NCBI GenBank assembly: GCA_051294905.1
Contig: CM119372.1
Coordinates: forward strand, 5,148,001-5,208,000
Direction of reading: 5' to 3'
Length of the DNA stretch: 60,000 bases
Source of the DNA: Botryllus schlosseri
Taxonomy: Eukaryota
In this document: positions 72 through 39,564 of the stretch, one piece after another
How positions within the stretch are numbered: position 1 is the stretch's first letter
Layout of the letters: each line of letters opens with the position of its first letter
Translations under genes and position numbers: made by a program
The notes under the pieces: generated by a model
What the model saw: only the letters and a program-made list of their open reading frames with translations
Told to the model about the DNA's origin: nothing
Database searches by the model: none

Positions 72-1112
72 GATTCACTACTTGGTCTGAGTGGGGTCTT
101 TGTTCCGATACATGCGATGGCGGGTCGCAAACTCGAAATAGGAATTGCCCTTTCGATTCTTGCGATCCAGACGCTGACGGAGACGACGTTGAACAGGCAC
201 GCTCTTGTAATACTCAGTTATGCCCGGGAGAGTGGGGTCCTTGGGGAAAATGGAGTTCGTGCACTGGGACGTGCGGAGACAGCAGCACTTCAGAAAGAAA
301 CCGAGTTTGCCGGGGAGAATCCGAGGGAAGAACATGCGCCGGCCGTAAGAGACAAGAAAAAGCATGTCCCGCATTACCGCCATGCCCTGGAATATGGGGC
401 GATTGGACCCAATGGTCTAAGTGTACGTTGACATGCGGGGGCGGAACGAGGAGCAGATCCAGAACTTGCGAAAACGGAGTGGTCGGACAAGTCGGATGTA
501 TCGGAGATACAAGTCAGAGTCAGCCTTGTAACGTTAAAATATGCCCTACTTCTTGGGGGCAATGGCAGGAGTGGGGAGAGTGTGACGGTGACTGCCAGCA
601 ATCACGTTCTAGGTAAAACTCGCAAAATGGATAGCATGGATATGAGAAACCTAAGTCGGGCTTAATTTTCGTTTCAGGGTATGCACTGGCGGGAACGCGC
701 GGAATCGAGTATGCCCCGGTTCTTCATCAGAGACCAGAGACTGCGAGAATTGCAATGGTATAAGTTTAACGAGCCTCTTCAGATTATCTAGTAACCCTCA
801 TCTATCTCGTTTCTTTAGTTGGCGATAAGTGCGAAGGAATCTTTGACGAAGTCAATTGGTGTAGGGCTATTGATCCAGTACTGTGCTTCACACCGCCTAA
901 TGGGCAGTACTGCCAGCGCTATTGCTGTGAAAGTGAGTCAGTAATTGATCCGTAAAACAACAATATATCTAAATTGCAATATATTCCTAGACTGCCAGAA
1001 CAACCCCGCTTATCAGTATTGCCTCGAACAATACCGAGAGTTTTGCGCCAGTGATACCCCCACTGGGGAAGCGTTCCGAAACAATTGCCGGGAATTCTGT
1101 GGACTGTGTTAG
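72..1112 (+). CDS. Gene A, 3' part only: TSP1 repeats + CC-type ShKT-like domain + terminal ShKT of a modular protease paralog
   Basis: Phase-compatible GT-AG exons at 72-612, 678-757, 819-932 and 991-1112. They give 4 TSP1 repeats (e.g. WSEWGLCSDTCDGGSQTRNRNC), then CEGIFDEVNWCRAIDPVLCFTPPNGQYCQRYCC, then the ShKT CQNNPAYQYCLEQYREFCASDTPTGEAFRNNCREFCGLC, ending at TAG 1110-1112. The protease domain lies outside the window and is inferred from paralogy. Confidence 0.88.
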
Positions 1113-2432
1113 TAGTTGAATTTTATAGTGATATAATGATTTTAATCGTTAATCATGTCTGAATCTTATCGTTCCTCTTCATCATTATGAATGTTATCTT
1201 ATTTGTTTTATGATGACGACTCGTTTGTTCATAATACTGTTATTGAGTGGTTCCGCTGTAGAGCTGATGCTGTCTTGTGATCTCGAAGTGAGCTGCTGCT
1301 GTGTTATCACATGAAAGAGCCCCTTTAAATAGCGCTACATGCATTGGACGAGTGGCTCTCAAACGCATGTGGACTGGTGCAGGTCCATATAAATTTTCCT
1401 GTCGGTTTGTCATATCTATTATAATTTAATATATCAATTCCAAAGTGCAAGAAGTTGGTCGCTTGTCCGTTAAATTAGAGAAATGAAAGTTAAAATTTTT
1501 CATTGATATAGAAATTTGGAATATATTTTTCTGCACGATGTCGAATTATGATCAATGTTTCATGGTTCATGGTCTAATTTGAATTAAGCGCTCATCATAA
1601 TGCTGCAAGTGCTGAACCAAACTGTCTCAAACTAGCCTACAACCCAATTAGGACCAGTGATGTGGGAATGCTAAGAATACTTTTTTAACGAAATAATTAA
1701 GTTTAAGGGCATTTCGCATTGCAGAAACTGCATCAATCTAATATCAAAATGCCGCATTAAGCGATACTAGGAATATTCTGCTTCTTCACAATTGCGAATA
1801 AAGTTGATGCATTTCTGTAAATAATGCGTATAGAAAAATATCGGGTGTGGCAATTACGGTCGCACTCTTTTCCTCCCTCTTCCCTGCCTGAGTATTACCC
1901 GCGCAAGTCAGACCTTTCCAGAGAAACCAATTTCAGACAAATCTTATCATGGCGTCAAACCAATTAATACAAATATATTAATAATGTAATACAAAGGCCG
2001 GTATATTTTCATGATCACCACAGTGACCTTGTATATGTACAAACAAGCAAAGGATATCGCGCGAAGCGCGAAGAAATTTTGTTGTTGCAAGAAATTTAGC
2101 AATCACTTTGGGGCGGTCGCAGCCCAAATTTATACCCTTACCCATACTTTAAGAACCCCTGTTTTATAGAGTACAGTTTACTTGTCGTCGAATTCTGGAA
2201 ATGTAATCCGGCATTGAGATGAGTAGGATATAGAGGACTGTAACGAGAGTCTCAGATTGCTTTGCGAATTAGAATGTATAAAAATATTTGATGACTTGCA
2301 ATTTGACTACGAGGCACAAGTCATCTTATGTTTTCCATACGTCGAGTCTGAGTCAAGCCTATCGAAGGTCGTTACAGTGTTTGATTGGAGTCGAGCCAAG
2401 TCATTCGAGAATTGTGAGTGGAGTCACCCCAT

Positions 2433-3465: not shown

Positions 3466-5045
3466 AAGTGTTGGCCCTACGAACGGGGGAGGGGGGGTCT
3501 GGGCGAGACTTACCGGGGGGCCCCCTATAAGTAGGGTTACCATATTTCAGCAACCCAAATTCGGGACACTCTTTAGCGCACTCACCAGCAACGCTTTGCT
3601 CATAGACCCGAGGTTGTCACGGTCCGGTTCAGGAGTATGTGGCTGTGTGTTGTGTAACCGGGACCGAAAGCACCTGTTTTAGCCCCCTCCCGCCCAAATA
3701 AACAATGATTTTGAGCCCACACTATGGGGTAATCGATGCAACATCTGGGCGACTCCGCCTCCAATTTGAAAATGTTCCGTGGCCCAGATCAGAATTTTAC
3801 AATATTAAGCTGCCGAAGGCAGCATAACGAGAAAAACTAATAGCTACGCCCGTAAGGGCGTAGTACAGAGTTTCCGCAATGGATTCACCACAGTTCTTGT
3901 TCAGATTTAAGACATGATATAATATATACATTTAAGATATATATATATTGGTAGGAATTTAGTGAACAAGACATTCTGGTGTTTTAGCCAAAGGATCTTC
4001 ATCCGTAAGCTGTCAGAGGCGGGCTTGACCCTACCGACAAGAATTCAAAGCATGGGTGCTTTGGGTAGATATTATGTAACATAAAATCTGGGAGTAAATA
4101 GGATAAAGAGTTCTTATGGGAAGATAAAGTATAAATAAAGGTAAAGTCATAATAAGGAAATAATATTAACAAAATAATTTATAGTATAAGCAGAGGGTAA
4201 TAATATAGTAGCATGAATATGACTCAGTCCAAAGCAACTCTACCATAGCATCTCACGTCGTCAGGGGTGGTAAAGTTGTAGGAAGGGCGTATTAGCCTCT
4301 CCTTTTCTGTAGCAAATACCGGAAATGCTTACGGCAGAGGGACTATAACAATTTTGATTGAGTTTAAATAAATGAGCTTGTATGGGGGGTGAATTTCAAC
4401 GAAAATGGTCGATTTCAGATAGTATTTTAAAATACTTCTAATTCGAAATCAGACAAAAGCAATACATTTTGAAAAGAACTAGTTTCATACTTTAGGATTC
4501 TGCAATGAAAAAATTTTGGAAAATTTTGTTAGTTCAGCAGTACCTTACGGCCTTAAAAAGCGGGACGTTTGACTGACTGGTCGGGACGCCGGGACAAGAC
4601 GTTAAAAATCGGGACTATCCCGCCTAAAACGGGACGTATGGTAAGCCTACCTATAAGTATCTATCCGTAACTTCTGGGGGGCGGAGCCCCCTTCCACATC
4701 GATTATTATTATCTATCTTTCACCACCGCCAAAGGTTTGCCCAGGTGCTGGATTCGGCCATGTCTATTTTGCATGTGTGCAAGGATAGACTACATCAAAA
4801 CTAAGTAATTCTACCGCATGCAGAGACGTGATTATTATCGGGATACGGGACTTTTCTTACAAATGCAGTAATTTGATGATGATTGACACATCTGTACGGA
4901 ATCATATTCTTGCTTGGTGCACGGATTGCCATGTTTAATCGTCATTCTCCTTGAAAAAAGCGCAAAATCCAAATAGGGGGGCCCCTTCGACCAGGGGGGG
5001 GGGGCGCGTAACCGCTCACCTAGCCCACCCCAAAAGCCACCACTG
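3466..5045. mobile_element. MITE nested in 3101-5626
   Basis: Imperfect TIRs (AAGTGTTGGC/GCCACCACTG) and near-identical TSD AGCATAGT/AGCGTAGT. Confidence 0.65.
3532..4649. mobile_element. hAT-type MITE (TAGGGTTACCATA ends), third nesting level
   Basis: TIRs TAGGGTTACCATA/TATGGTAAGCCTA, TSD CCTATAAG on both sides, CGGGAC subterminal repeats. Confidence 0.88.
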
Positions 5046-6068
5046 AGCGTAGTGAAGTAACCTCATATCAAAATTTCTGTTCCATGTTCTTACATCAACA
5101 AAACCTCTTGTTTTGATGAAATTGAATTCGAATATAGTTTATATATAGTTGATCCCCAACCATTGGCGCAGGCTCGAATTTTACCATATCAATTTGTGAA
5201 TGGGTAATGTATTGCATCTTATCAATTCGTTACTCTATTCTCTATTTTGGCTGGTAACTATAAACTGAGGCTAACGTAGTTTGCAGTTCTACGTATATTT
5301 GAACGATACAGCGCCTTCTTGCGTGTATATTTAAGTCTGTATTCGTTCATCGGTTCAAAATCAATGACCACTCAATCTATGTATTTCTGACAGCTAGCAA
5401 AATGCAATGACGTAATCAAGCCTCATACTTCGAAAAGGCAACTTGACTTGAATTGTGACTTGACTTGACTTGACTCGACTTGACTCGAGTCACCTCCAAA
5501 AATCGAGTGACTTGACTTGACTCGAGTCACTTTCGAAAATCGATTGACTTGACTTGACTCGAGTCAAAATGTGCAATGACTCGAAATGACTCGTGACTCG
5601 AAGGTAGTGACTTGATCCCAACACTGTCTAACAGTAGCAGCTAATCTAGAAGCGAAGATTGTCGGAATTCTAGTCCCAAATTCGGGCGCGGAAAACGAAA
5701 TCAATTTGTTAACAAATACCATACCGAAATACATTCTTCAAAGAAAGGGTCACCGACCCCCGACCCGATTTGAGATTTCGGAAGAACGCTTAGTAAAGCA
5801 TTTTGAAATGCTGAAATTGATTGGACTTTAAGAATATTGTTGTTGCTGTTCAAAATAAGCTATGCCCTAATGTGCCCAACATCACTGTTCCTCACTAGCT
5901 GATGGGGCTTCGCCGATGATAATAGCATTCCATGGCGGGATAATTAGCTGATGCGGGCCCGGCTGATGCAAAGGGGCAAATTGCCTTTACTTGAAATGAC
6001 TGAGTCATTGCCAAGACCGAGACGCTTAGAAAACGACTTGGGGACTCCCCACAAGATTAAGTTTACGA

Positions 6069-6649
6069 CTGTGATGAGCGGATAGTGCTTTTCGATACTC
6101 CGAACCCCTCCGACAACTTTAGTCTCTGAGGCAATCTCCCTCCGACTCCGAAGAGCTCAATCCCAGACTCCAAGATAATCCGAAGAATCTCGTCCAGTCT
6201 CGTCAGTCTGCCTTGCTAAATCACTAGGTTAAGATAGCTCATCGCCAATCATACCATTATAACCAGTTTTATATCATCAGAGTGGCAAGCAAGGTACACT
6301 GGGCAATGTGTTTTACTAAATAGATGTGATAATATGGTTGGCCATATAGTATTGTCTACTCTCCACTGGAGTGCATTGCATTGCAGTGCAAATGGCTGAT
6401 TTTTATAAACTTGGCAATCCTTTTTGCATGTTACCCGTCACATTACAATTTTACAAGGTGTAAACTGCTGGTGTTTTGGTTTGTAATCAATAGTGTCTTC
6501 TGGTCAGAGCTATCCAAAGATATCGGGGGCAAAAATTACAACACTCCGAAAAAATATCTGTAGTAAACTCCGACTCCGCTCCGAGTGTCACAAAATCGGC
6601 AAAACTCCGCTCTGAATACACTCCGACTCCGCTCCGATGCTCATCACTG
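6069..6649. mobile_element. hAT-type MITE with ACTCCG subterminal repeats
   Basis: TIRs CTGTGATGAGC/GCTCATCACTG and TSD GTTTACGA (6061-6068, 6650-6657). Confidence 0.85.
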
Positions 6650-7399
6650 GTTTACGAGGAGATCGTTTTCCAGCAAGTATAGCCTACCGTGTATGGTTAA
6701 CCGCGCTAACCCCAATATAGATTCTTAGTCACTGAAAATTGTTGTCAATTATCGTGCGCTGCACACAGTTCCAATAGCAGAAAAATGATGATCATGATTT
6801 TTTTGTAGGAATATACAATTTCTTTTGCGGTAACAATGTGCGGCCCATGTTAGAGAGCACAGCGTTGTACTGATGTGAATTTTGTAAAACGTGGTTGCCT
6901 GGGTGGCCTATATTAGGCTATCTCCATATTGAATTCATGCGGCCCGCGTTCTCTACAAAATTTGAAAAGTGACCTGTGTCCTATTTTGAGTTGGCGATCT
7001 CTGATTTAGAGACTGTACAATGTACACGTACAGTACACTTTATACAGTACACTGGACGTACGGTGAGCATATCAGAAATTGCAATGAGTGTCGAAATGTT
7101 TTATGAATTCGAATCACTAGGTGCAAATATTTTTACACGTTGAATGGCAACGATTTGACGATTTGCTTTGGTACGTGCTACGTTGTATCTCAGGGATATA
7201 TTGACCTGAACATTCCCGATTAGCGGTTATAGCGCTACTTCAATCGTTATTATACCTCTTCCTCAGAGAACACAACAGACTTTGGCCGTATACAGTCTAT
7301 ACACATTATTCAATCGCAACAGCAGATAATGTCCGTTGTTTCCGGTGATCTATTACGAGCGGCATCTCATGTAATTTACTATTCCACCTCAAACCGCGT

Positions 7400-7830
7400 T
7401 ACGTGAGAACAAGCGAAACCCGACCTTTCAGTTTTTCGCGTAGAGTCATTTTACGGAAGTGAGTTTCACATTTGCGGTGCGACATTCAGAACTGTTTGTT
7501 CAATAGCGACACGTCACTTTTGCTGCTCACTTGAAGCACACCTAAGCATAAATTTGCTCCAGGCCGTCCTTCACGACTTGGTGACATCACATTGCGAATA
7601 TAGTATGCGTCTCTCAAAAACACATCAGATATGGAGAGCTGGACTTGCATGGTCCGCATTGGAATCATTTCTATCGCTTCAAGATACATTATATTATGAA
7701 TGGTGGTTACAAGAATGAGCATTTTTGACCGCAGCATCATATTTATTCCTGTATTCGTTGAGAAAGAGTTACGAAGGCAACAGTTTCTTCCATGTATTCC
7801 GATATATTCAGCTTGGCGTTTTGAGGATAA
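7400..7830 (+). promoter_or_regulatory. Conserved upstream block of gene B (homologous to 30515-30910)
   Basis: Colinear matches to the gene C upstream region: AAGYGAAACCCG..TTTCAGTT, CG(G)AAGTGAGTT, TGACATCACATWGCGAATA, TTTCYATCGCTTCAAG, GCATCAT..TTTATTC. Regulatory function is inferred. Confidence 0.55.
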
Positions 7831-9170
7831 ATGTATTCTTTATTGTTATTGTAATTAATCATAAGGAGAGTGTCGCTTATCAACACAATCGATCTCGTGC
7901 CTATGCCAGGAGAATTTTAACGGTGTCGGTTTACACTATCCGTTCATGGTTCGATATAACAATAACTCATGCGAAATATGACAAATAGGACGACTAGTTG
8001 TAGTAATTTCGAAACCGCACGGGGATTAAATGTTATAGAAAGGATAGTCTTTCACAATCAATATCCCCAGAATATTGTAATACTTGACAAGGCGTAGCAT
8101 GCACTGAATATAGTTTAACATACATTTAACCGAAATTTTCAAAAAGTAGGACATTTAGGCGTTCTCCGAGGACATTTTCAAAAATGTCAAAAAAGAGGAC
8201 AAATCCTCCTGGAAGTGGACGTATGGTAACCCTAGTATTGAGCAATAAGCATTCAGCCTGCGATGGCCTGAGCGCAGGCCAACACGGAAAAAAGTAAAAA
8301 AAACAGCAAAAAAGTCGATTCCAATCAGATGGAATATCAGCGAGACATGGAGCGATTAAAGTACCAATATAATCGATAACATTTACTTCTGCAACGCGTG
8401 ATTATAGAATGGTGACAAAAATTGAAACATAGTGTCCTATTTGGTGTGGACACAGCGAGATCGAGCGGCTCGCTGCATTTGGGTAACGTCATTCATTCCA
8501 TTTGACCAAATGCAACTTTACGTTCCCAGGTGGGTGTCTGATCTCAAAGACTACTCCAAATCGCTTTGGCACCTTCTTATCTTTCATTGTATCGCAGTCT
8601 TGTGATTTTTGAAGTGATGAAATTTTATGAATAAACTTGAACTTGATATATTTTGTGAACAACAGTCGTCAGATATCTCGATCGATGTGGTAAATTGAAT
8701 CAGTTCTAAAGCTGAATGAAATTCGCGTAGTCATAGCATCTATATTCAAGTTCACATTTTAGTTTTACGACTATACTGTTCGCTATGTCGTACATACAAA
8801 ATGAATCATTAGATCAATTGCCCGTTAAAGAGGCTTGAACATTTACGTATTGTAGAACATGTTGTTCTACGTGTTTACTGATCCCATGGGTTCAGAGACG
8901 TCCATGCTGGTTGTAATGATACGGAAGAATACTTAAGGGGTTGGGGGTCGAGTTAAGAGGGATTCACACTTCTTCAAAATCGAGTTTCACCGGAATTGGG
9001 AACACATTCGTTCACCTTGATTATTCAACCAGAAAGTATAAATTACTTTGGTGGTACATTACAAAACAAAATCGCATCATCGAGTACTTACGTCGCTTTC
9101 TACCTGAAAAGTGCTCTTGGCCGCAATTTGCACCATGTCACACTGGAGACAGGTTTCGCCATCCAAGGAG

Positions 9171-12100
9171 ATGAAAGGGAGGTTAGCAAACATTTTATCA
9201 GGCTTTAAACTTGAGAAATATCAAAATCCCTCATTTTGTCTAGGGCAGTGCTTTTCAACCTTTTTGAGCTTCATTCGCACTATTTTTGTAAAATAAATTT
9301 CATTCGCACAAACTAGCCGAATATTGTTATACAAAAAGAAAGATGAAAATATAACATTTATTTGTTCAGATGTGCAACAAATTGGCCACTGGCGTAACCA
9401 GGGAGGGGTGAAAGGGGCGGTCGCCCCCCCCCCCCAATTTTTGATTTTTTTTTTAAATCAATAGATATTACAGTATTTTGGCGTAGATGTATGTAACCTC
9501 AAATTTTTCTTCGCGCTTCGCGCGATTTATTGTCCGTTTATTTCTTGATTTTAATATCGGTATCACGAAAAAAACTCTTCCGCAAATACCCATTGAATTT
9601 AGCTGCATTCTCTATTATGAAAATACAACAGTACCAGTAGATACACTACAGTAGCCCGAGGTCGTTGGGTTGATTGAGTCTATAGGAGTGTCAGTTCAGT
9701 ATGGGGGTTGGGGACTGATAGCTCCGGCAACTTCCGTTCGGGACAAACGAATATATATAAAGTAGGCTACATCCGACTCCGCAAGTGCGCTTCCAAAATG
9801 ATTGACGGCCATAAAACCTACCCATGTATTCCGAAAGCCTTCGAGAAACATTTTCGGGTGCTTAAATGGCTGCATGGCGGCTAATGATCCTGTTCCTGCA
9901 ATCAGACCCCTCCAACATAAATGCGACTTGCACAGGAAAATAGCACCACCTCACGTTAAAAAGTGCTGATTTGAAATTGAACGAGTCTGATCAAAGGAGT
10001 TCTATTATTTGGTCTGATTTGTATCAGCGATTTCAATCTTTAAAGTATAGCGTCAATCTGTACCAGAGGTTACGAACTAACCGCGTGCTTCAACGAAGTG
10101 ATAAGAATGGACACCACTTGCTCGTATAGACGAACCAATATTATTGATCAAATTAATCCTTCACTTATTAAAAAAACATTTACGTTCTGCGCAACTATGG
10201 CCGAAATTCAGACTGATTGTTCATTAGGGCTCTTCAAAAATGACTTTTTTTCTCAAATCGTACTGGCTACTTGATAAAATTGTTAGGTTACCTAATTTAA
10301 GCCTACGTACAAAATTTGGTTCAATTCCAGCAAGTAACCGCTTTGTTACAGGAGAAGAAAGTTTCTATTTATTATATAAAAATAAATAATAAAAAATTTG
10401 AAAATTTTCTGTTCACCCCGTGAAAGTGTTAGGCTGCCTATAGAAACGATGCTCACCAAGTTTGGTTCAATTCCAACCAGTGGAAGCGGAGTTATTGCCG
10501 TCGAAAAATTTGGATTTGAATAAAATAGTATTTACGGTGAGCACAACTATAATAAATAAACAAAGAATCGGTCACCGTAAATACTATTATTTTCAAATCC
10601 AAATTTTTCGACGGCAATAACTCCGCTTCCACTGGTTGGAATTGAACCAAATTTGGTGAGCATCGTTTCTATAGACAGCCTAACACTTTCATGGGGTGAA
10701 CAGAAAATTTTCAAATTTTTTATTATTTATTTTTATATAATAAATAGAAACTTTCTTCTCCTGTAGCAAAGCGGTTACTGGTTGGAATTGAACCAAATTT
10801 TGTGTGTAGGCTTAAATTAGGTAACCTAACAATTTTATCAAGTAGCCAGTACGATTTGAGAAAAAAATCATTTTTGAAGAGCCCTATTGTTCATCACTTA
10901 ATGTCAGCGATTTGGGCTCGTCCGCGAGACGACCACCTAATACAAGCTTAGTTGGAAACTGGAAACTTCTATCGGGTATATATGTGTGTGCGATGTTTCC
11001 ACGGAAGACCTCCCCTAAAAAAAATTGTTTTTTTCTGGCTACGACTTTACGTGTGCGTGATCTCTTGAGTGGTGACAGCTTTCTCCGCAAGTCATGAAGT
11101 AACAGCAATAAATGACAACTGTCCTGTCCGGCGTCCGTCCACCCTCTAGAACAGGGACGGCCAACCCGGGTCCCGCTAGAAGGTTTTGAGTGGCCCGCGG
11201 GTTAATTCTCGAAATTAATAATATTATCGAAAAATAAATTACCAAAACCAAATAACCAAATTTTGTTTAGCTTGACCGCGAAATTTGGGATTTTGACGAC
11301 TAAATTATCAGTTTCGGCGCATTGGCGTAGCCAGGGGCCAGCCACATTTTTCGTAGATCGTCCTATCTAATGTACAATATTTCGCTCGGCTAGGTCGGGG
11401 ATCCACCAAAAGTCTTCATGACACAATTGTTATGGATTTTGATACGTATTAATATGAGTATTGTTTTCACCGTTACCTATTATCCGGTACTCTCCTATCG
11501 GAAGAGTAAAAAAAGGCTCATCAACATTCATATATAGTTGAAGATGTATAATTAAGTGCCCCTGAATGTTCGATGACACCACTTCCATCAACACTGCCAG
11601 TAAATCTGATAATGAAAACGTATTTGCAATATGCAAATAACAATAAAAGTAACCAATTTCATTCATTAACCAAGAAAAATTTTCGCGCTTCACGCGAAGG
11701 TGTTGTCGTCGGGGTTTTCCACAATCATCATATTATCACTAGGGCGATTTTTTTTGACATGTCAAAAAAAGTCAAAATTAGGTCAAAATTGTAGCGTTAG
11801 GTCAAAATTTGTCAAAATTGTTTACAAAATCAGACATTTTTTGACCTCTACATTTCGTTTGTATCGTAGATTTTGCGCTGTGTGTGAACTTATCATTTGA
11901 TAATTTACAGCCTGTAGCCTACTTTATAGGCCTACCGTTGTAAACGGCCCATCGTCTGCTCATTGTGAATCATAAACGGTCAAATGAAACAAATAGTGAC
12001 ATGGTTTTATGGTCAACGTACCGCAATATCCTAACTGAAGCAAGACTGCTTGGGCATTGCATGGTTCTTACATCAAGAAGCGCAAGCTGAAAAATAGTGA

Positions 12101-15100
12101 TATAGACAACATTGTCAGAATGAAGCAACACGGTGCATCACCAGCAAGCAGTGTGCACACAACTTCAGTGTTGTGAGCTAACAACTGCTGCTGTTGAACG
12201 TTCTTTCTCCATTCTTGGCAAGCTACTTGGTAAGAACAGACACTTTCTACCCGAGATAGCGCAGTGGTATAATCCGCGACTGCAACACCAATGGGTGTGG
12301 GTTCGATTCCGACCGAGGTCGACTTCATAATTCCGATGGCTAAGTGTTGGGTGTTTACCTAGGCTCCGCCTCGCCACCTCATCCGCGTAAGCGGTGTCTT
12401 ACAAAAAAGCCTACAGGTGGACCGTGCTATATGTTGGCAGTTACGGAAAATAATGAAGAATATCGGCCTGGTGTAAATGACCATAGTAGTTGACAAACAC
12501 CATGAATACCACAAAACAAACAAACAAAACAAACACTTTTTACCCGAGAATGTAGGAAAGTGTCTTTCGTTGTACTACAACAAATTTTAATTATTCCACC
12601 ATAATACGTAATGTAACTACTGCAATTCTTCATAGGGCCAGATTTCGTTAAAATACTAGTTTTTTCATGTAAAAATGTGTCAGTTTTTTAGCCAAAAACG
12701 TTCTTTCAGGCCAATCTACTTTGTAAGGACAGACAGTTCCAACCAGAAATGAAGATAAGTAGTACAATTTTAACATTATGTGCGAAAACACCTAATTTGC
12801 ATACGTGAGGTCAAAATTTGGTCAAATTTCATTTTTTTTAGGTCAAAAAAAGTCAAAATTTAGATTTTTTAGGTCAAAATCATCCGTTTTTTAGGTCAAA
12901 AAAAAAATCGCCCTAATTATCACATCATGTCTATGAATGGAATATGTATATAACGATCGCCCAAAATGTTGTGTTAATCATCCAATAAGGGCCCAAGTCC
13001 ATCGTTTTTTACATATTTTTCTTTATCTTTAAGGTTCATTTACGTCATCGAATTTTTCGCCCCCCCCCAAATATTTTTTCTGGCTACGCCCTTGAAATTG
13101 GCTAATATGTATCTTAAGCTAGAGTTGCCATACATCCGGAATTTCTCGGACATGTCCGAATTTCACTGAAAAATCTGCGTCCGGGACCGAGAGGAATTTC
13201 TAAAATATGCCTAAATATCCGGAATTTTGAAGGCTTGAAGCAGGCTCAAAAGTCTTTCTTAACTCAACATAAACAATATTATTTTCAAGCAGATTTACGC
13301 TATTCAAAATTGTTCTTCGGGCCGCGCGCGAGTTAATGCAACGTATACTGATATTAGTATGGGCACCAGGCACCACCATCGCCAAAAATGCAATCGAAAT
13401 AAATATAAATAACCATCATTTACTGAAATAAGTCTGATTGTAAAACCCTTCTCGGCCCAACAAGTTTTTGGGTTTTGTACAAGAACGTCTACTAGTGCTT
13501 GGATATAGTCAGGTCTTGAAATCTGTTCTGAACTCCATCCAAAATACAACGTATTATTCACGAGTGAAAAATGCTTGCTGGAAGAAATCGATTTTGAGAG
13601 CTGACAAAAAGGTCTGGGAGACTACAGTATAGGCCTATGTGGAAAGGGTGAAAAACCCACTTATTTGTGTTGAGGCTCGCTACCTGATGATACGTTGCTC
13701 CAACTTTTTTTTCGATTTCCCATTTTCTGTCTTGCGGGTAGGCCTATGTGGGAAGAGCAAATAAATTCACGATACTGTGTGTTCTGCTCTTTAGCTCAAT
13801 CTATCTTGAGAATTCATAACAGTTTAATACTAATAATAGTTTTTTGGACTACCACCAAAATCAGAGTTTTTGTGGCATCTCGCGACCAGAGCCTCACCCA
13901 TGAAAAGGAATTCATTTGTAATACTACAGTAGTACGCTACGATTTTACGAACGTGTATGACATAAAGAACTCGCACACCACAATTCTATCCAACACAGCT
14001 CTACAAAATATGTCTGACGTACGCGATTTCAAATTAGGGTGAATTAAATTCTTCTGCCTGTCGCAGTTGTACTACTGTCTACTCAGATCGCAAGAACGGG
14101 ACTATTCCGTGCCGACAACGGGGCATATCCATATCGAATGTTTATGTTCGACGTCAAAACTTTACGTCTTCATGTGACCCGACGCTGAAGTGGTTGGCCT
14201 CGAAATGAACATAATTTTTTGCAATAAAGTCAACAAACATTACATGCATATTAGCAGATAGCTATCATACTAGCAGATAGCCCTTGAATTTCCTATAAGG
14301 TTTATTTGAATTATTCCAGGTCAGAAAAAGTACCAATTATTGTTCACTATTTTCATTCGCACCCATCCGCGATTTTCATTCGCCCCATTCGCACCACCTT
14401 CGTCATTCGCACTGCAATTTTTTTCATTCGCACAAGTGCGAACCGTCACACAGGTTGAAAAGCACTGGTCTAGGGTAATGTTAATTTTACTTCAATTACT
14501 CATGGGCCACATGGAAGTTTCTGGAAGCGGTACGTGCGCTGTACAAAATCGACATGTAGACAGTACTATTGAAATTTCCATTAATTTTCCAGAATGCACT
14601 GACATAAGCCCAAGTATTTGCCACTCGATTGGGTCGTTTTGTGATCGCGAACCATACAAATCGTACGCAAGAAGGAACTGCCCCATTACATGTAAACAGT
14701 GCCCCGAAGGTGCTCTTGGTTGTTCCTGATGCATTAAACTAAACTATAATGAGGTACGTCTGTATTCTTACCTAGACTTGGACCCTATCGGACTGTGTCG
14801 GAATGATACAGTTTGTGATCACGAATGTGCCGTCGCGGATGAAACGAAAAAATATTGCTCATGCTATCTGGGATACGAATTAGTTGGAACCGGCGAATGT
14901 CGAGGTAAATTCTTCAAATATAATCGAAAATTACCGTTTTATGTTTGGATGGATATATAGATGCATTATAGTATAGGCTTAAATAATGCCGTCATATCAC
15001 ATGAATGTCGACATTTAGGTACCGATTAATACTTCGTATATATTGGCCAGCATAATATTCAGTACGTAGATAACAACAGGGGCTAAGGTATATTTAATAT

Positions 15101-18100
15101 AAACACAGCACATACATGAAGCAGCGGTTTATATCGAAAAACCCCGTACCTTTAAATTGAGATGAGTCAACAATGGACGCTAATCAACGTTAGGGTTGCA
15201 TTTAAAACAAATGGTAGTTTAAAACTCTTTGTTTAAAACATGTTCAAGCAGTAATTGTGTAAATACTTTCCAAAAAACATGTTGTATTAGCCTACGGACA
15301 ATGACCACCCGATATAGCCGACGTATATCGATATGGGATGGTTGGAACCCCCCAACTAGTCGGTTCAACAGCTATAGTACAGATATTTCATCAAAGGACT
15401 TATATTTACCATATATTTTTAATTGTCAATGCCAATCCACTATGGCGTCACTATTGGATATTCGTGACGACGTGGCCTAAAAATATCTTTAACCAGGACT
15501 ACATCGTCTTGCAGCATGATTACGGTCAGCGGTCATCATCATCAGAACATTCATTTCGTACCAATCATCTATATATCTACGCACTATAGCTGTCGAACGG
15601 ACTATTTCGAGGGTTCCAACCATTCCATATACAGCTTATCGGGTGGTAATCGTCGTCCGTAGGCTCATACAACATGTTTTTGGAAAGTATTTACACAATT
15701 ATGGCATAATTCTACAGCTTGAAAAATATTTTTATTGAATTTGTTTAAAACACCGTTTGTTTTAAATGCAACCCTAACTATATGCGTACGCATATAAATA
15801 TATCCGAATATTACAAATCAAATGCAAAACTTATAGCGGTTAATTTCCGAAAACACACAATACATTTAGTATGCTTTAAACTTGCAATGGTTATTTTAGA
15901 TGTCGACGAATGCAAACTGCCTATACCGGCATGTAATATAGGGAACTTTTGTGTCAACTCGCCGGGAGGCTTCGCGTGTGAAAGCGTGCAGTGTATAGAC
16001 GACCCCACCGCAGTGCCATACATGGGCCGACCAGAATGCTGTAGGAAAGAGCCCGGTAAGGTTATTTTCCAGTAAAATTGATTTACCAATTCGACGTAAA
16101 CTTCGAACGATGTCTTTCGACTTGGAGTCATAATTTCACATCGCTGCTTATTCCGCCAGTTAATGCACCCTGTGGAATAATTCGAGCAAAATCAGTGCGA
16201 CGAATTGTCGGAGGAAACTACTCTTACGCCGGCCAGTGGCCGTGGCAGGTGGGCAAATTTGATCTTAAAGTGATATGAATTGCACCATTCTATTTTCTCA
16301 ATTTTCTCTAAAGATATTGATGTACACCAACAGAGCTGTCATTTGCGGAGGAACATTGCTCAGCAACAATTGGGTTCTAACGGCAGCCCATTGTTTCAGG
16401 TTGGTTCATATTTCATTTCGAGAGACCTGTGCACATAATTGTCTTATTGAGTTGATGCTGTAGTGATCATTCGTCGAATACGGTGGTGGAATTGCACGCC
16501 GGGGTCCTCGAAGTGGATGAGTTGCATTTGGCACGAGTCCAGACCAGAAAACCGAAGAGGGTAAGTTAATTCCGTCTGATGTGTTGTTTTGAATTGTATT
16601 ATCAACACGAAGTCTCAGGCAAAACTATCGGTTCCACAGTATTTCATAAATGATAGCGCGATGCCATCCTCTGATACAACGTCCAGGTTATTCAATTGGC
16701 ATCTAAAATTACTACGTCACAGATATAGTAAAATCTGTGACAGGATATTGCAAACGGCAGCAAGGCACGAATGATGTCTTGAAATATTCCATAACAAAGT
16801 GTAGGACATGTAAGGACCAGTCCATTTATTTTCAGATCATCACATATTTTGGTCCCTCTGAGACAGGGGTCGGAAGCCTTTTTCGTCAAAGGATCGAGCC
16901 ATATTCACCCTATATTGCAATTGCCATTTCACTGTGATGTCACAGTTAATGATTCGTGAATCGTGACCTCATGGCTAAAAAACATCAGCAACAAAACAAG
17001 CGCTGGGAAGTTATTGGGGCGCCGACAAGCGTGGCGTAACAGTGCAGATGGTGTTATAGTTGTCATAGGGATAATAGTTCTATATATCCTTGAGACCTCG
17101 TTGCAAATTTCATGCATTCATTCATTCCAAACAAAATTCATCAATTAACCAAAATTTTCATCTCGCTTTGCGTGAAATATACCGACGATATATTAAGGGT
17201 TTGCATGAATGCAGTGGTTACTATTCATCTAAAATGTGTTTATTACGCTTCATGTGCGTACTTTTAGACAGAAAAATCTTCGTTAACACAGTTCGATCAC
17301 ACTAGATAAGGGTTTCCCGACAAAATATTTCGAGCTAGGTATTATTGCAGCACACTGCGTCTCGAAATCCGGAAGCGTGGTTCTATACTGCTTTTTAGAG
17401 TGACAGCCATTTGTACAGTAGACATGATATAAAGCAGGGGTGGGCAATTATTTTCCTCCGCGGGCCAAATGAAAAAAATAAATACGTTGGCGGGCCGAGT
17501 GAAATTTTTTAGCTATATTCTCCAGCGTATTTTAATTCTATTTCTAAATTACATTCCTAATAAATGCTACTCAGTGAATCTGTTGATATTAGGTAATGAG
17601 AAAGTGACGGTTGATTAAAAAATATCTATGTGCGGTCATGATTCGTAACATTGTTAAACATGATACATTTTTGCTCTCTTAAAACCCCTATCCACGTTCT
17701 TCTATTATGAATTTAAAACAGTGGTTCTCAAACTTTTTCAGGCACGCCTCTTTTATGATAGTGGACAATTTTCGAGCCCCTCATCATGATATTACAAAAC
17801 ACTAAAAAGTGCAACCGGAATGCTGGTAATCCCAATAGATAGTTTGATAGCATGGAAGATTATGGCTGTTAATAAGAAAATTGTGACATAATAATCGGAT
17901 AATACACAAAGCAACAACTATAAGCTGGGTTTATATCGCGCGGACCGCGAAAAAATTTTTCAATAAACTTCGGCTTCGCGCCACCCCTCTGATGCTTTCA
18001 CGTCTCTCAGTTTGAGAACCATTGTACTGAAATGTATATGCAATAGTACAAAGCTTATTTTCTTGGTCGCTGCCTTCCGAGCAGTGCGCAGCTAAAATGA

Positions 18101-21100
18101 ACTTTATGTTGAACGAAGCTTGCAGTTTTTCTGAACTTCGCCCTCCCTTGACTGAGTGTTTTTTCGTGTTTTTGTCATAAGACCGACTTTGGTGAAATTC
18201 TTAATCTCGGCGTCATGCTCGGAAAAAACTGAAAGGACGGGTTTACCTCTGACTCCAGTGTTCTAAATTCTAAACTTAAACCTTGTTTGAATTTCAGTTT
18301 CGGCTTTCTTTTTTGGGCATGACCGTTAATCGTTTGTGTGCTGATAGATATGATGAGTGATATAGTATTCGCAAGCACTGATTGACTTGTTTTACGAATC
18401 AGTGATTTGGAACATATCACGTAGCAAATTGAAACTCATATACCGTATAATGCGTTAGTTGACAATGGCAACTAGGAAGGTTTGAACTAAACTATATCAA
18501 AAAAGCGATTTCTTGTGTCTTCAATTGCTACTCATACTTTGCCACCTTGCCTTTATATTGAATCTGGACTACGCATGCGTAGGGAAGCGTTATCGTGGCA
18601 CATTATTGAACATGCTTCAAAGTAAACGAATTTCCTGTTCATTTGATATAGTCAGTTTTAGTCATTCAAAAAGCAAGTTTTATTTTTGAATTCCAAGCAA
18701 CCTTTCGCGGGCCGCACAGAATAGCTTCGCGGGCCGCACTTTGCCCAGGCCTGATATAAAGCTTTCTATTAGAATGATTATACCTTTGTTTTCGAGAACT
18801 ACAAAATACAACGTCACCGAATCGGGCTGTGTGCATTGGGCTTGGAATATGAGCCCTTTCCTAACAGGTGCAATAAGAACCTTGATTTGATCCCGAAAAT
18901 ATAGTGCATACAATTAAATTAGTCGAGTGGTCAACGGGCGCGATGCGTGAAATATTTCCAATAGTCAATTCCAAACCAGAAAAAATCGACTGGACTTGGA
19001 CCTCTACGGCTCTACCCCGCCGTCTTTAGTACAGTCCTTGAAATTTGGGGTGGGGGAGTGCAGACCATGCAAATTTCCAAAAGGGGCGCTGGGAGAAATA
19101 AAAGTTAAGAACCACTGATCTAGGCACATCCTGGCCATTGTAGCCATGGCCACAGTAGTCTCAAAACACCATGAATACAACAACCATTCAGTATAGTAAG
19201 GTGCGCGAAATGCTCATTTCTTTTTAGTTTATCACATACCCTGGATGGGACAAGAGTATGTTTCAAATCAACGATATAGCTCTGATAGAACTAGATAGCC
19301 CAGTCACTTTCAATGATTATATATCGCCAGTGTGTTTACCTAACGGAGAAACAGTTAAAACTGGAACAACGTGTTTCGCTGCTGGTTGGGGGATTACCGG
19401 TATGACAACATTGTTCCAAATGCGATCAAATAATTGTACCACATAACCATATCATTTTAGGTCAAGACGAAGTGCTGCCCTCCACAATGCAGCCATCCAC
19501 ATTTCTTCAGCATGAGAGTCTGCAAATTGTTGATCGGGAAAAATGTGAAGAGAGTTATAAAAACAACAGGTTAAGAGTTAATGAGACAATCATGGTCTGT
19601 GCGGGATACGACGAAGGTCACAAAGACGCCTGTTATAAAGGTGTGGTATGCACAATTGCACATGCGCATCAAATAGTCACTCATCAAAAAGAATCGTTCA
19701 CTAATTGCAGGAGACTCCGGCGGTCCCTTAGTTTGCCAACGCTGCGACAGTTGCGGTTGGTTTGTCGCGGGAGTCATTTCGTTCGGAGGTAGATGCGCAC
19801 AAACGGGGAAATACCGAGTGTACACTGATGTAATGTACTATGAAGATTGGATAGCGAGAGAAACCGGAATTCACTTATCGAAGACCAACACTTGTACAGG
19901 ACCACGTAAGTTTAATGGTTGTCAACTACGTAGTACATACCTATCATATACATACTCTTTCGTGGTAATGAATCCATGGGATGCATTCACAGAGCTCACG
20001 AATTGGAGTGAGTGGTCCCAGTGTCCGACAACGTGCGGATACAAAGCCATTAAGAAGAGAACAAGGCGATGCCTCCATAAGGGTCAAAATAGCTCTGGTT
20101 GCGTTGGAGTGTTAAAGGATCAAAAGCAATGCCCCAGAAAGCCATGTCCAAGTATGGTATTATGTATAATGGCGAGGAATAGCGTCATTATCACTATTGT
20201 CACCACGTGATATTCAGGACTCAGCTCGTGGAGTGTTTGGACGCCCTGCTCAAAAGAGTGTGGCTCAGGCATTCAAAGTAGAGTAAGAGAATGCTTTCAC
20301 GGAGAGCTTGGTCTCGAGGAGTGCCCAGTGTCAGGATCTTTTCAGATTACAGTAAGTTGATATGCGATGAGAGTCAATTGGATGATCCCTGTAATGCTAT
20401 GCGACAACGATCGCAGAACAATCATAGCAATGTTCTCATTCAGAAATGTAACACAATGCCATGTGCAAAATGGGGAAATTGGGACACCTGGGGCCAGTGC
20501 TCGCAAACTTGTGACAGTGGAAAAAGGAAGCGGTCACGTAGTTGCATGAATACATTACCAGGCCAGAATTGCCTTGGCAAGCCCGTGGAGGAAGAGTCTT
20601 GCAATACTGCAGCGTGCCCCAGTAAGGCTTTCGTAACATTCCACACATATCAATGCCAATCTACTATATACTACTGACGTGATATTGTAACACCTGCATT
20701 TATAAAGCCATGTAGTCGGTGGTACATGGTGCAGCCAGACTCACAAATCCAATTCGGCTAATCAGGGGTTCTCAAAGGGTGGGCCACAGGAGCATTTGAG
20801 GTGGGCCACAAAGCTATTTAGAAATTTTTTGAATTATTGTAAGTTCAGCGATATTTGTTATCTTAAACGCTAAAAATATATTCATAAAGCTTTTCACCCG
20901 ACTCTGATAAGACGCAGTGGCACATATGGAGTCAGAATGTACAACTAGAAAACGGGATGGGCAAACGGCGTCTTTTTCCACTGGTTATGAAAACCTACGG
21001 CTAACCCCATCAAAAATAATTTGGAGTATATAATAACTGGACGGTAATGCTGAAGTAACCAAGCACTCCGGTAGGATCATATGTCATATGCCGTTGAAAG

Positions 21101-24100
21101 GGGTGTGCAATAAACTCGAATGAAGTGCCATTGATGTATAGATTTACTGTACTTCGGCAGGTCGTATTATTGTAAGATAAAAATACCAATAATTGCAAAT
21201 TATTAGCAACTTCTGAAGAAGGTATACTGCACCACCGCAACGAATCGTAATGGATTGAGGATTTGGCGGAGCGCATTAATCTTTGAAGTCGGTTTAAAAT
21301 GTCCGGCCTGGAAATCATTGTACATAATGTAAGAGTCACATGAAATAATGGTATCACTGGATTGGATCGCAACTTTAGTTGGTTTGGTACAAGACATACA
21401 ATGTACATTGTACAGCATGCATGATAAAAAACTACTTCTCCACTTCTCTGTAGTACCCCATTCATTAATGGATTATTCGATGCTGGCCCAGAATGATTAT
21501 ATTATTCCCACAATTGTGGAACTAAAACCCCAATCACACATTGTATTTCGCGACGCGAAGGGAGAAGAGGACGATCATAATATACAGTGCAGATTTAGCC
21601 TGTGATGGGCCGTAACTGCCGCACCTAAACCCAAAATTGGGGGAGATTGAGGGGGTCCAAGGTTATTTCGTTGGTCGTTTGTTGGAGGATATTCATTCAA
21701 CTTGAAAATTTTCTTCGCGCTTCCTGCGATTTCATGTCCCGAGAGATCTACATTTAAAAATCATCCGTATATTAAGAGTAAAATGCGCATATTTTAGGGA
21801 AATGGGTATATCGGCACCATCGGTTAACACGCATTAAACGGGATTATTGCTCTAGGATAAGATGTGGGCCACAGCATACTTTCAAACCGGACATTGGGTC
21901 ACGGCCAAGAAAGGGCTGAGAACCCCTGGGCTAGGCCAATTTCCTAGTTTTTGATGACGCCGCGGGCCGCGGCATCAATAATAGGGATATTCAGTGTATA
22001 ATTTCCAAGGAGGTCTTATTTGACGGAAGCTTGCAGACAGGCATTCCACAAGCATCGCGAGAATGTAATTTACTATTGTATTGACAAGAAAAAAATTACA
22101 TTTTCAAATATTTGAATAAAATTGTTTTGCGCAGGGCATAATTTGTTAAAATATTGAGTTATAGACATCATGCAGGACGATGCATCATCAGGCTGTCGGG
22201 CTCTAAAATTGCAGTTAGTGGACCTTTGACGTGGCACAATTTTATGTAGAATATTTTAAAATCTACTGAAGATTGATCTGATATCAGAGCATTTGAGCGG
22301 TGGAGCCTAATCCGGGTTTTGATATAGTCTTAATAAGTGGGCTATGGTCACTGTCAAAGTCAAATGAAATCAGCGTAAGATTTTGCCTACGATTATAATT
22401 GGAACATATCAATAACAAGTTAATTCTTAACCTTAGCGATCGTACCCCTCGTGCTTCCAATCAGATTTCTCGTAGCCCCTGTTCATTTTCAACACAATTT
22501 TTGATGGTACCTACATTAAAATCAGAAAAACCTATTTCCATAAATTCGCGCGTAGCGCGAAGACCATTTTCTCGTTGAATAAATTTGCCAAAAAAAATAC
22601 TCCGCACGCTGTAGGCCTAATTCCACAATACATCTCGCACCCACTAGTGTGATGCCCGAATGGGTCTACGGGTCCTGGTTAAGAACCCCTAGAATAGAAA
22701 TGTCCAATCGCCGATGAATTCATTGGTGTTGCAGCTATGGAGCAGCGTACTACTACCTTACTCGACACCGATAATAACATAACTAAAGAGAACAAACAAC
22801 ACCCAGCATGTAACCAATTATACATTACGGGCGTCTGTAGGATTACCAAGTCACCGTTCCGATTCGCAACTCCTTCTCTGATTTTAACGTTTCACCCGAC
22901 TCAACTCGAATTATTTTTATTTAATCATCAAGTCAATCCGAAATCGAGTAATTTTACGAACGGTCGCACCAAACCAAATCACAATTTTCAGTCAAGAATC
23001 ATCAACGGGTCCTGTTTTATCATCATGAACTAGAGAGTGACGTAATAGCTGATTTTCTATACCGCATGATAGCTTTTAAAAGTGATGTGTTGTGTAGTTT
23101 GTTGAGATTTCAGTGGTTTTATAGTAGTTTTAGGGCGAACTTTTACGTTCTTATATCTAAAAAAAGATATATGACACTTGAATATTTTGTCGAATACTTG
23201 AAAGCGAGAGTTACGATATGATGTTCTCAATTTGCGAGCCATTCAACAAAAATGTCATTACGCCGCCAATGCCTAATCTGTCGCTGATTGCACTAAGCAG
23301 TAAAACCTGCAATCATAGAGAATGCACTCGTAGACTGTAGGTGTAGGCGTTATTACTAGTAATAGAAAACAACGATTCCGGTCTTTGTCTTCAGCCATAT
23401 TCAACATACTTCAGCTTTCAGTGATTGGACGACATGGGGACCATGTACCAAGACGTGTGGGAGCGGTGAACAGTCGCGCTCCAGAACATGTTTTCACACA
23501 CAGAATCCACTTGACTGTGTAGGAGATGCATCTCAGACACGATTTTGCATCGAGAAAGTATGCCCTGCCAAAAGGAGCAGTTGGACGGCCTGGTCGTCAT
23601 GTAGTATGACATGCGGAGATGGGGTCAGGGAGAGAAGTCGCAGTTGCCAGGTTAATGCGATAATGATGCTATTGCAGACAGAATTTGTATTTTACCATTT
23701 TAAATATACCAGGGCGGGAGGACAGTTCAGGCGACCTGTAATAATGGACGAGAAAAAAATTACGAGAACTGCACGACGACACCATGTACTTCGCAATGGT
23801 CGGCCTGGGAGCAATGGCAGGAGTGCACGCAAAGTCATTCATTTAGAATTAAACCCCGTTTCAAATCTACATGTGTGATTCAATTACAGCATGTGGTAAA
23901 GGTGTGAGGCGTCGTGTAAGGTCATGCACAGGTGCCGAGGTTGGTCAAGCGGGATGTGTCCCATTTTCCAATCACGTGGAAAATGAATCGTGCAATGAGC
24001 AGGAATGCGAAGGTCTGATGTGTATAATTAATTTCACATGCTGCGAATTGGTATCTAAACGGATTCCTCGATACACAGAATGCGTGGACTTCTACGAAGA

Positions 24101-36650: not shown

Positions 36651-38272
36651 AAATGGTCATTTTTTCGTAAGGGACGGTATTACAAAACCCACGCAGAGAG
36701 GCCAATAACAGGATTCACATTTGACCATATTCGTAGCCAGAACTAATATTTTGAAAGTACAGTGGACATTTTAGGGAGCGGTTATATCTTTTATTTAATT
36801 TAAAAAATTGTGAAAAATCAAAAAGCACATTATTCCCGTCTAATGATTCCGGAATTTCGCAATTTAGTGAAAACAGGAATTTGTGACAACATTTTAAGGT
36901 AGTCCTATCTTTAAGATCTTAAACTTTGAATTAAGTACTGAACCACGAGTCTTGGGTGAGTTTTCAAATGACGCTGTCAACAAATATAGTTCTAGAGCGT
37001 AGCCCAAATCAAACAGACCCAACTAAACGTAAAACTCCTTCGGTGAGACGCATGTCTCCTTTCACGAGGTGCAATATTTTCCTCTGTGAATTGCATTTGT
37101 ATCACAGGGGTAAGATTGTAATCTACGCCCCGTTGTGTTCTGGCGCGGAGGTGGTTGGCGCCGAAGGGCAGGTGCCTAATAGTGATACTTCGCCGGTTGC
37201 ACGACCACAGACTAATGCATCCAATAATCCGAAAGCGTTCCTATAATTCCATCGTTTTCTCGTAATTTCGAATACAGACAGATTCAATTCAGTAACGTAT
37301 GCTGTAGTTTTCGGGAGGGGTTACGCACATCAAAACTTAGTAAAAAAATACCATCCCAAAATCGCGCGGAGTGCGAAGAAAAATTGTTGGAAAAAGTTGG
37401 ATATATCTGTCCTAAAATACTCTTATTTCATGTTCATCATGCAGGGAGAGAGCACGCAGCAGTTATAGTCCAAATATATTATCAATTGATGTAACGAGAT
37501 GAACATGAATTCTAGAAATGCGGTGCAGATTTCTGCCGAATTCGGTTAAATGAACTAGTGAACGAATCATTATGGTTCAATTCCTACAAACAATGAAGTA
37601 TATTTTGGCGTCGGTTTGATAGACAGAGAGAGAGGGAGGGAGGGAGGGTGAAAGAGTGCAACCGCGTGGCGTTCCGGTTATTTTGTAGCGGGAAGACATA
37701 AGCCTACTCCACGCCACCTTGAGGTGAATTCTCACAAAACGTCGTAGTGGAACGAATAGGACATATCGACGGAGGCGGTGAACGGTTGAAATTACGTCTG
37801 ACTTGGATATGATGCCTGTTCAGTGTTCAGACGAGCCAATACCGAAGTGATAGCAATTCGCAAACGTGCATAATGCATTGGCCTGCCTTTTCGCAAACAT
37901 GCAGATGCGGTATAAGAACAAGATTACGATAATAATATGATTTCGGAATCTGCGAGTCATGGTGTCATGGGATTTCAACTTCGCGATGTGCAGTGATGGT
38001 TTCTTAATGACAGTACGTGCCAGGCGTCGTCGAATGAGGACAAGCTGTGTATAACAAATATCTGAGACTGCACACTGCACAGTTACATTTTTTTATGTTT
38101 TGGAGAGATGTCTGACATTCGCACCTCATAATCGATAACGAACTATCACACAAGATTTCGGTCTAGATTTGCTCCGACGAAAATATCGAGACAGAGTGAA
38201 CATGGTAACACATAAATTTGGACAATGTCGTTTTAAAGTGAACATTTTTGAGTCAAATGCTTCAATTTAGTT

Positions 38273-39473: not shown

Positions 39474-39564
39474 ATTTAGTTGGATAACAAGTCCAATAAC
39501 CGATTTTGTTGTATAGTTCAGGTTTATACACGGGGTGAATCAGATGACTCAAATAGCTTATCAG

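Follow-up and report, generated by a model that had tools for sequence, protein, structure and literature searches.

A 60,000-nucleotide stretch of Botryllus schlosseri DNA (the window; G000:C2:5148001-5208000 of an assembly of 495.5 Mb in 219 contigs) contains mosaic serine-protease genes arranged as a tandem cluster, with their best named relatives in Clavelina and Ciona, and in one of these genes, gene B, a nest of transposons lies on the 3' splice site of intron 1. The models of genes A to D were hand-built from GT/AG sites and open frames and are predicted, not RNA-proven. Gene B, on the forward strand, comprises 18 exons and 17 introns with 785 codons from the ATG at 9171, or 797 from an additional in-frame upstream ATG at 9135-9137. 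The coding part of exon 1 (9171-9181) gives M K G plus AG, with the conserved counterpart M K W plus AG in the sister gene A; it is followed by the original intron 1 (9182-9243, 62 nt, intact, donor score 6.1, acceptor score 7.1). Exon 2 (14474-14529), with the same 56 nt as in gene A, encodes the hydrophobic core of the signal peptide and includes an in-frame ATG at 14478, and exons 3-18 (14593-24198) encode ShK, EGF, trypsin-type protease, TSP1 repeats and ShK and are open throughout. Judging from gene A, 9171 is the conserved start codon of gene B, while 9135 was rejected as the ancestral start since gene A has no ATG at the corresponding place. A TATA-like hexamer at 9037-9042 could serve as the core promoter.

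The 8-mer GTCTAGGG is found at 9238-9245 and again at 14468-14475, identical at 8 of 8 positions, and each copy of this target-site duplication (TSD) carries an acceptor AG, at 9242-9243 on the left and at 14472-14473 on the right. Between them lie 5,222 bp (9246-14467) that end in 16 identical inverted bases, which agrees with the proposal of the first-pass annotation that the nest sits exactly on the acceptor of the signal-peptide exon. Also as proposed, excision in silico of the element and one TSD copy restores a 62-nt GT..AG intron (9182-9243) and leaves an open frame, MKGR|VMLILLQLLMGHMEVSG. The duplication carried the AG along and left the upstream intron signals behind at the left copy. 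Hence the left AG retains the untouched old intron, at the modal intron length, but is now a dead end: the frame read from it runs into the element and stops, as had been noted, although after 23 codons rather than about 24, at 9314-9316. Furthermore, an AATAAA at 9292-9297, 48 nt past the left acceptor, is kept in 28 of 29 family copies.

Gene A displays the empty state of this site. It starts 9.9 kb upstream of the window (stretch L092), is complete with 1,313 residues, and shows 70-78% DNA identity to gene B across most exons. At its 5' end, an exon 1 reading MKWR is followed by a 65-nt phase-2 intron with GTCCAG|GG as its one acceptor, and then by an exon 2 of 56 nt. The acceptor region aligns first to the left part of gene B and then to gene B exon 2, and the ATG context and the GTTAG donor are alike in both genes. 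This empty site confirms exon 1 and the insertion point, and is stronger evidence than that from gene C (752 residues), whose phase-2 first intron of 60 nt does share the position, as originally claimed. A second haplotype of the exon-1 region was not found in the assembly, which gave one match only.

In order to characterise the element, matches of the family ends were collected (1,606 and 1,411 first-look candidates, 40 scored per end), and terminal inverted repeats (TIRs) and TSDs were surveyed in 12 fetched stretches, of which 9 had both element ends. A perfect 8-bp TSD is present in 8 of these 9 copies. Among 58 target flanks, TA occupies positions 4-5 in 44 and YAG positions 4-6 in 24. 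The outer element's own sequence amounts to 1,506 bp (9246-9386 plus 13103-14467), whole family copies span 1,809-4,557 bp with their nests included, and the longest stop-free frame in the nest here is 122 codons. Buster-family hAT transposons have an nnnTAnnn target consensus and TIRs of 5-27 bp as described in PMC3517528, and the 8-bp TSD, the 16-bp TIR and the nnnTAnnn target in 44 of the 58 flanks are in accordance with this. The outer element would then be a non-autonomous Buster-type hAT, placed by its target signature. It resembles non-autonomous Buster elements such as Drosophila Mar, as presented in the same source (PMC3517528), in its 8-bp TSD, short TIR, nnnTAnnn target, high copy number and absence of a coding frame, but here the target signature is the sole ground for the clade assignment, and its own length of about 1.5 kb exceeds that of a typical miniature inverted-repeat transposable element (MITE). 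An acceptor of the CTAG|GG form would then be a preferred target, and an occasional insertion into a true acceptor would require no special mechanism. The first-pass annotation had regarded the outer element as a MITE, which is right as to a transposon but not as to its class: MITEs do not exceed a few hundred bases, and only an inner palindrome of 662 bp fits that length.

Nesting runs to four levels. The outer element (9246-14467, TIRs at 9246-9261 and 14452-14467) contains a second-level hAT-like element of 3,708 bp (9387-13094, 8-bp TSD at 9379-9386 and 13095-13102), which in turn contains two third-level elements, each with an 8-bp TSD, namely the palindromic MITE of 662 bp (10225-10886) and a hAT-like element of 1,176 bp (11740-12915). 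At the fourth level, within this 1,176-bp element, a repeat resembling a short interspersed nuclear element (SINE) with a tRNA-like head lies on the forward strand at 12257-12528 within a 21-nt flanking duplication alike at 19 of 21 positions; ARAGORN calls no tRNA gene in it. The 8-bp duplications are perfect in all four DNA elements. Among 40 scored matches each, the three inner junctions are spanned at this locus only, which is compatible with assembly in place, while a ready-made unit moved by cut-and-paste would look alike. The outer element was compared with its three closest relatives, two of which have a common TSD and represent one event. Of 971 sites, 15 carry substitutions private to the element here, which sets an upper bound on its age. 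The insertion thus appears young, at most 1.5% diverged.

Several other copies were seen. Two near-identical copies of the outer element with the same 8-bp flank lie 13 kb apart on opposite strands of contig C7 (L098 and L099), and would stem either from a segmental duplication in inverted orientation or from the copying of a single event. Within the window, a relative of the second-level element (74-90%) lies between genes C and D (36745-39520) and carries different insertions at different places, and an additional palindromic MITE-like element lies at 15189-15778 in gene B intron 4.

The scoring matrix for splice sites was built on 66 introns of genes A-D other than this one, leaving each one out in turn; 56 of the 66 are 55-138 nt long. 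The left acceptor, at 7.1, stands at the 64th percentile of the 66 local acceptors, whereas the right one scores -2.4, under all 66 others (lowest -0.4), and AGs lie 11 and 20 nt upstream of it, closer than the upstream AG of any of the 66. The earlier view of a weak right acceptor is therefore borne out. Moreover, three acceptors in the element's right end, at 14320 (8.1, AG at 14318-14319), 14325 (5.1) and 14454 (2.8, AG at 14452-14453 on the inner edge of the right TIR and kept in 25 of 29 copies), outscore the right TSD acceptor. None of them keeps the reading frame when spliced directly from exon 1. Several two-step routes that first use the left AG do keep it: 9247>14454, the shortest, which adds 8 residues, 9247>14325 and 9287>14320. 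The donor of the first two is a weak GT in the left TIR (9248-9253, score 1.4), its hexamer present in 29 of 29 copies, and would leave a 4-nt piece. Initiation at the ATG at 14478 preserves the hydrophobic core; a route from donor 9288 to exon 2 would end at a stop overlapping this ATG (14476-14480). The open frame at the element's right end was considered as a frame selected here and rejected, as 7 of 29 other copies, three of the four closest among them, have it open too. These in-frame routes, like the AATAAA, gene A and an older dead-end acceptor in intron 8, were absent from the first-pass annotation.

Other insertions at acceptors were sought in the 58 scored flanks, a minor fraction of the candidates (more than 1,400), and the 3 best look-alikes were fetched. 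Two are not insertions at acceptors, with no exon at L109 and the element inside an intron of about 147 nt at L110, and the third (L111) has no left element end in the stretch. The L110 element (5768-7798) is a family copy in antisense; the short intron that it occupies would measure about 147 nt without it and separates two open frames that resemble exons.

The body of gene B was then assessed for decay. No stop, frameshift or broken GT/AG is found in its 785 codons and 17 introns. In Pfam, 7 of its exons give ShK, EGF_CA (below cut-off), Trypsin twice, TSP_1 and ShK, with one exon without match; the protease is of the peptidase S1 type, with PF00089 above cut-off in two exons and AAHC, NDIAL and GDSGG present. 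Against gene A, the pairwise ratio of nonsynonymous to synonymous divergence (dN/dS) is 0.20 over 778 codons (bootstrap 0.16-0.25), 0.18 (0.13-0.23) outside a gene A-like patch described below and 0.36 (95% 0.18-0.71) inside it, values that largely reflect the long time before an insertion too young for a strong test. With an intact frame and a dN/dS not near 1, gene B does not look like a pseudogene, and inactivation as a completed event, one of three outcomes that the first-pass annotation had offered without choosing, finds no support, while the split acceptor and the weak right AG from the same interpretation do. Under neutral decay, 3.6-4.3 disabling changes would be expected over the full element age (P(none) 0.014-0.028), and P(none) is 0.12-0.17 over half that age; the sums used 105 stop-making sites against 123-134 computed, so that the expected values are slightly low. 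The absence of disabling changes thus lends modest support to gene B's continued function.

Within the protease domain, gene B has nevertheless drifted more than gene A. Where at least 4 of the 6 outgroups agree, 7 changes fall on B, every one in exons 9-11, and a single one on A (p = 0.07), while a looser threshold gives 17 against 6 (p = 0.035); among the changes are those at the substrate pocket given below. The domain order, the short signal peptide and a motif past the catalytic serine are those of tunicate ShK-EGF-trypsin-TSP1 proteases (P0001 of Clavelina lepadiformis; P0006 and P0015 of Ciona intestinalis; P0002 of Ciona savignyi). Gene B departs from these in that GDSGG is preceded by an additional residue, Gly has become Arg at two positions of the pocket wall, and exon 10 carries 5 inserted residues that A does not have (window 19461-19905); a Gly-to-His change near the pocket base lies in the same segment. 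In the (P/Y)GVYT motif, where 6 of 6 outgroups, gene A and the two solved chains shown keep the Gly, gene B has Arg. With the substrate-pocket numbering that we take to apply here (Asp at the base, Gly walls), gene B lacks the open pocket for basic residues, and its protease is possibly inactive or re-specified. Gene B is also without several TSP1 exons present in gene A, and from these comparisons looks like a diverging, partly dispensable copy. Gene A carries TSP1 and ShK exons missing from B (L092 8025-8817 and 9769-10000; window 72-1113), and no remnant of its extra exons was found in the 2.8-kb intron 14 of gene B.

In protein collections, gene B's own protein was not found among 8 candidates, nor among 17 of 80 candidates, which were all from other species or unlabelled; 10 further matches are weak, at 29-42% identity. 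An exact 25-nt exon-2 pattern had no match in metagenome contigs, and no open-access publication on the ShK-EGF-trypsin-TSP1 protease family was found by title. A search of sequencing runs returned 24, with no RNA run among the holders of the sequence. One run (X5, 67 million letters, kind unrecorded) contains 0.63 of words against 0.61 expected from exons alone, which is a lead only.

Gene B harbours a second, older dead-end acceptor. A patch at 15799-16847 is 86-98% like gene A, compared with 70-78% elsewhere, with a synonymous divergence (dS) and an intron distance of 0.15 each versus a dS of 0.66-1.43 elsewhere, and would represent an A-to-B conversion tract; its counterpart in gene A lies at L092 3162-4275 and 6594-6642. 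The patch stops 12 nt into an A-type exon 9, leaving a copy of the gene A intron-8 acceptor at 16834-16835 (score 9.6), 275 nt from the donor, whereas gene B's own acceptor is at 19226-19227. From 16836 onward the frame is open for 33 codons and then stops; a weak donor at 16869 could avoid this by defining an in-frame exon of 33 nt. Gene B has nonetheless stayed open since the patch (about 0.077 substitutions per site), during which 18-21 disabling changes would be expected neutrally (P(none) at most 2e-8), an estimate that assumes gene A's ancestor as donor. Judged from its open frame, this is a gene that one strong dead-end acceptor did not kill, which provides the main argument against a null allele and for efficient skipping or in-frame detours. 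The two dead ends differ in that no AATAAA follows 16835 for 640 nt, compared with 48 nt past 9243.

Some details of the patch are recorded here. Its end falls in a 5'-truncated repeat, with microhomology at the join, and the hAT nest in gene A intron 8 is missing from it, which indicates that this nest arrived later. An 8-nt repeat at 16839/19231 was rejected as the TSD of a second insertion: a TIR is missing, the window has 4 occurrences of the 8-mer, the repeat at 16847 extends further left in 14 other copies, and gene A explains the 16839/19231 repeat as a conversion end.

Taken together, we tentatively favour, with somewhat less than even confidence, the reading that this gene B allele is a young, leaky trap tolerated beside an intact sister gene, in which the left AG would trap many transcripts while some correct protein is still made. 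The insertion probably weakens gene B rather than kills it. The element, a non-autonomous Buster-type hAT by its target signature, inserted at a site that matches its target preference well, and this site was by chance the acceptor of intron 1. Splicing of the intact old intron of 62 nt would probably come first, and many transcripts would then enter the element's left end, where the AATAAA and the stop may act as a natural gene trap. A minority of full-length protein could arise by skipping to the weak right AG or by a second splice from a left-end donor to a right-end acceptor, for which several routes are in frame, and a further minority product by initiation at the ATG at 14478. Further elements would have inserted into this added DNA afterwards, either at this site or before the unit's arrival. 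Such an allele may be tolerated because gene A is intact next door and gene B had already drifted at its substrate pocket.

Several points weigh on the other side. The donors required for rescue score only 1.4 and -2.2 (the lowest real donor scores 1.0). The acceptor at 16835 scores 9.6 and yet gene B stayed open, a precedent suggesting that the spliceosome may skip unpaired acceptors efficiently, which would favour a silent insertion. Among the 9 other long introns of genes A-D, 6 likewise contain an AATAAA. The element age, being an upper bound, may be compatible with a recent null allele. Finally, the acceptor and donor matrix draws on 66 predicted introns from four genes, acceptor use is deduced from the DNA, and spliced RNA from an empty allele would, without a genotype, be indistinguishable from 9181>14474 splicing.

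Two alternatives are about equally improbable, and both considerably less so than the remaining ones. According to the first, the insertion is silent: exon definition over the 56-nt exon 2 and the 63-nt downstream intron selects the right AG, the nest joins intron 1 and the protein is unchanged. The intact reading frame agrees with this, as do the acceptor at 16835, skipped or tolerated in the same gene, the absence of any donor scoring above 3 within 229 nt past the left AG, and repeat-filled introns of 1-2.8 kb, which are common in the cluster. Such splicing would, however, have to choose an AG weaker than all 66 local acceptors and preceded at 11 and 20 nt by other AGs, and to ignore 33 AGs scoring at least 5 between 9244 and 14325, besides 2 counted as ends (35 in total); the left AG, unlike 16835, also has an AATAAA closely downstream. 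We regard this as unlikely. Equally doubtful is a null allele caught early, in which all transcripts are trapped and gene B is pseudogene-bound, or the allele rare, with no time for decay. The trap anatomy (acceptor scores, AATAAA and stop), the age of at most 1.5%, five duplications that are all perfect or nearly so, the B-specific changes in the substrate pocket, the several gene A TSP1 exons lost or absent, and the dN/dS of 0.36 in the youngest segment would all suit it, but 2,355 nt lack any disabling change despite four later insertions (P 0.014-0.17) and the overall dN/dS is 0.18-0.20.

Self-removal in two steps appears quite improbable. Here, splicing to 9244 would be followed by pairing of the left-TIR GT with the right-TIR-edge AG, leaving an in-frame scar of exactly 24 nt (MKGRAVEKHWSRVMLILL...; 2 + 14 + the 8-bp TSD), open in two of three frames, so that gene B would be a living proto-introner, steered by YAG, whose nest is removed by recursive or micro-exon splicing at the cost of 8 more signal-peptide residues, in a gene that also puts up with the dead-end acceptor at 16835. 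This route is open and retains the hydrophobic core, acceptor 14454 scores above 14474, gene B intron 3 itself requires a GTGCT donor (3.7), and both sites are family features; nevertheless it needs a 4-nt exon or recursive splicing from a donor of only 1.4, the location of both sites in the termini explains their conservation, and no second case is seen in the 58 flanks. Trans-splicing occurs in tunicates. Least probable, by a little, is that exon 1 is dispensable and that another 5' end (a promoter in the nest, an out-of-frame splice with re-initiation, or a spliced leader) leads to a start at the ATG at 14478, which has G at -3, keeps the core and has parallels in a Met of gene A in the same stretch and in gene D, which starts inside its signal exon, but which would give a product that lacks basic residues ahead of the core and reaches the first domain after only about 17 residues, has no upstream ATG in the open right-end frame of the element, and would depend in part on a hypothetical promoter.

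Elsewhere in the cluster, gene D, modelled for its 5' half only, begins inside its signal-peptide exon (window 41583-41667), 12 nt past an acceptor-like AG with an in-frame stop, and its first intron thus seems to lie in the 5' untranslated region, unlike those of A, B and C. A more distant protease paralog starts just past the window end (L095, about 3500-9280).

TSDs can supply copies of splice sites in transposon-made introns, or introners (PMC3443670, PMC11282704, PMC12130899). The present case resembles those described there in that a TSD copies a splice site and the element has a latent donor and acceptor near its ends, but it is the acceptor of an existing intron that was struck, with no new intron position and no family-wide pattern in the 58 flanks. 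It is not an introner because the intron, present in genes A and C, predates the element. The leaky-trap allele may work more like known alleles of another kind. In maize, Ds and dSpm insertions spliced from host transcripts give leaky alleles. Like these, gene B would combine a hAT in a gene, competing splice routes and partial function, and for a Ds-type removal it has a candidate donor and a candidate acceptor near opposite ends and open routes, with weak donors (1.4 and -2.2). The maize cases differ in being mostly exon insertions proven by complementary DNA, whereas here an intron-exon boundary is occupied by a nest of four levels known from its DNA. In open-access publications, by title and abstract start, with most subscription papers outside this scope, no literature was found on a transposon duplicating an existing acceptor.

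The insertion is an instructive but ordinary kind of accident and, judged from the DNA, one insertion allele in a redundant paralog. The locus nonetheless offers a clean natural experiment on how an animal with short introns chooses between splice sites, setting a strong, near, unpartnered acceptor against a weak, far, partnered one twice within gene B, with gene A as an untouched sister control. If the two-step in-frame removal were true, it would link ordinary hAT elements to introners. For the family itself, the preference of Buster-type elements for TA and YAG targets would bring them onto acceptors.

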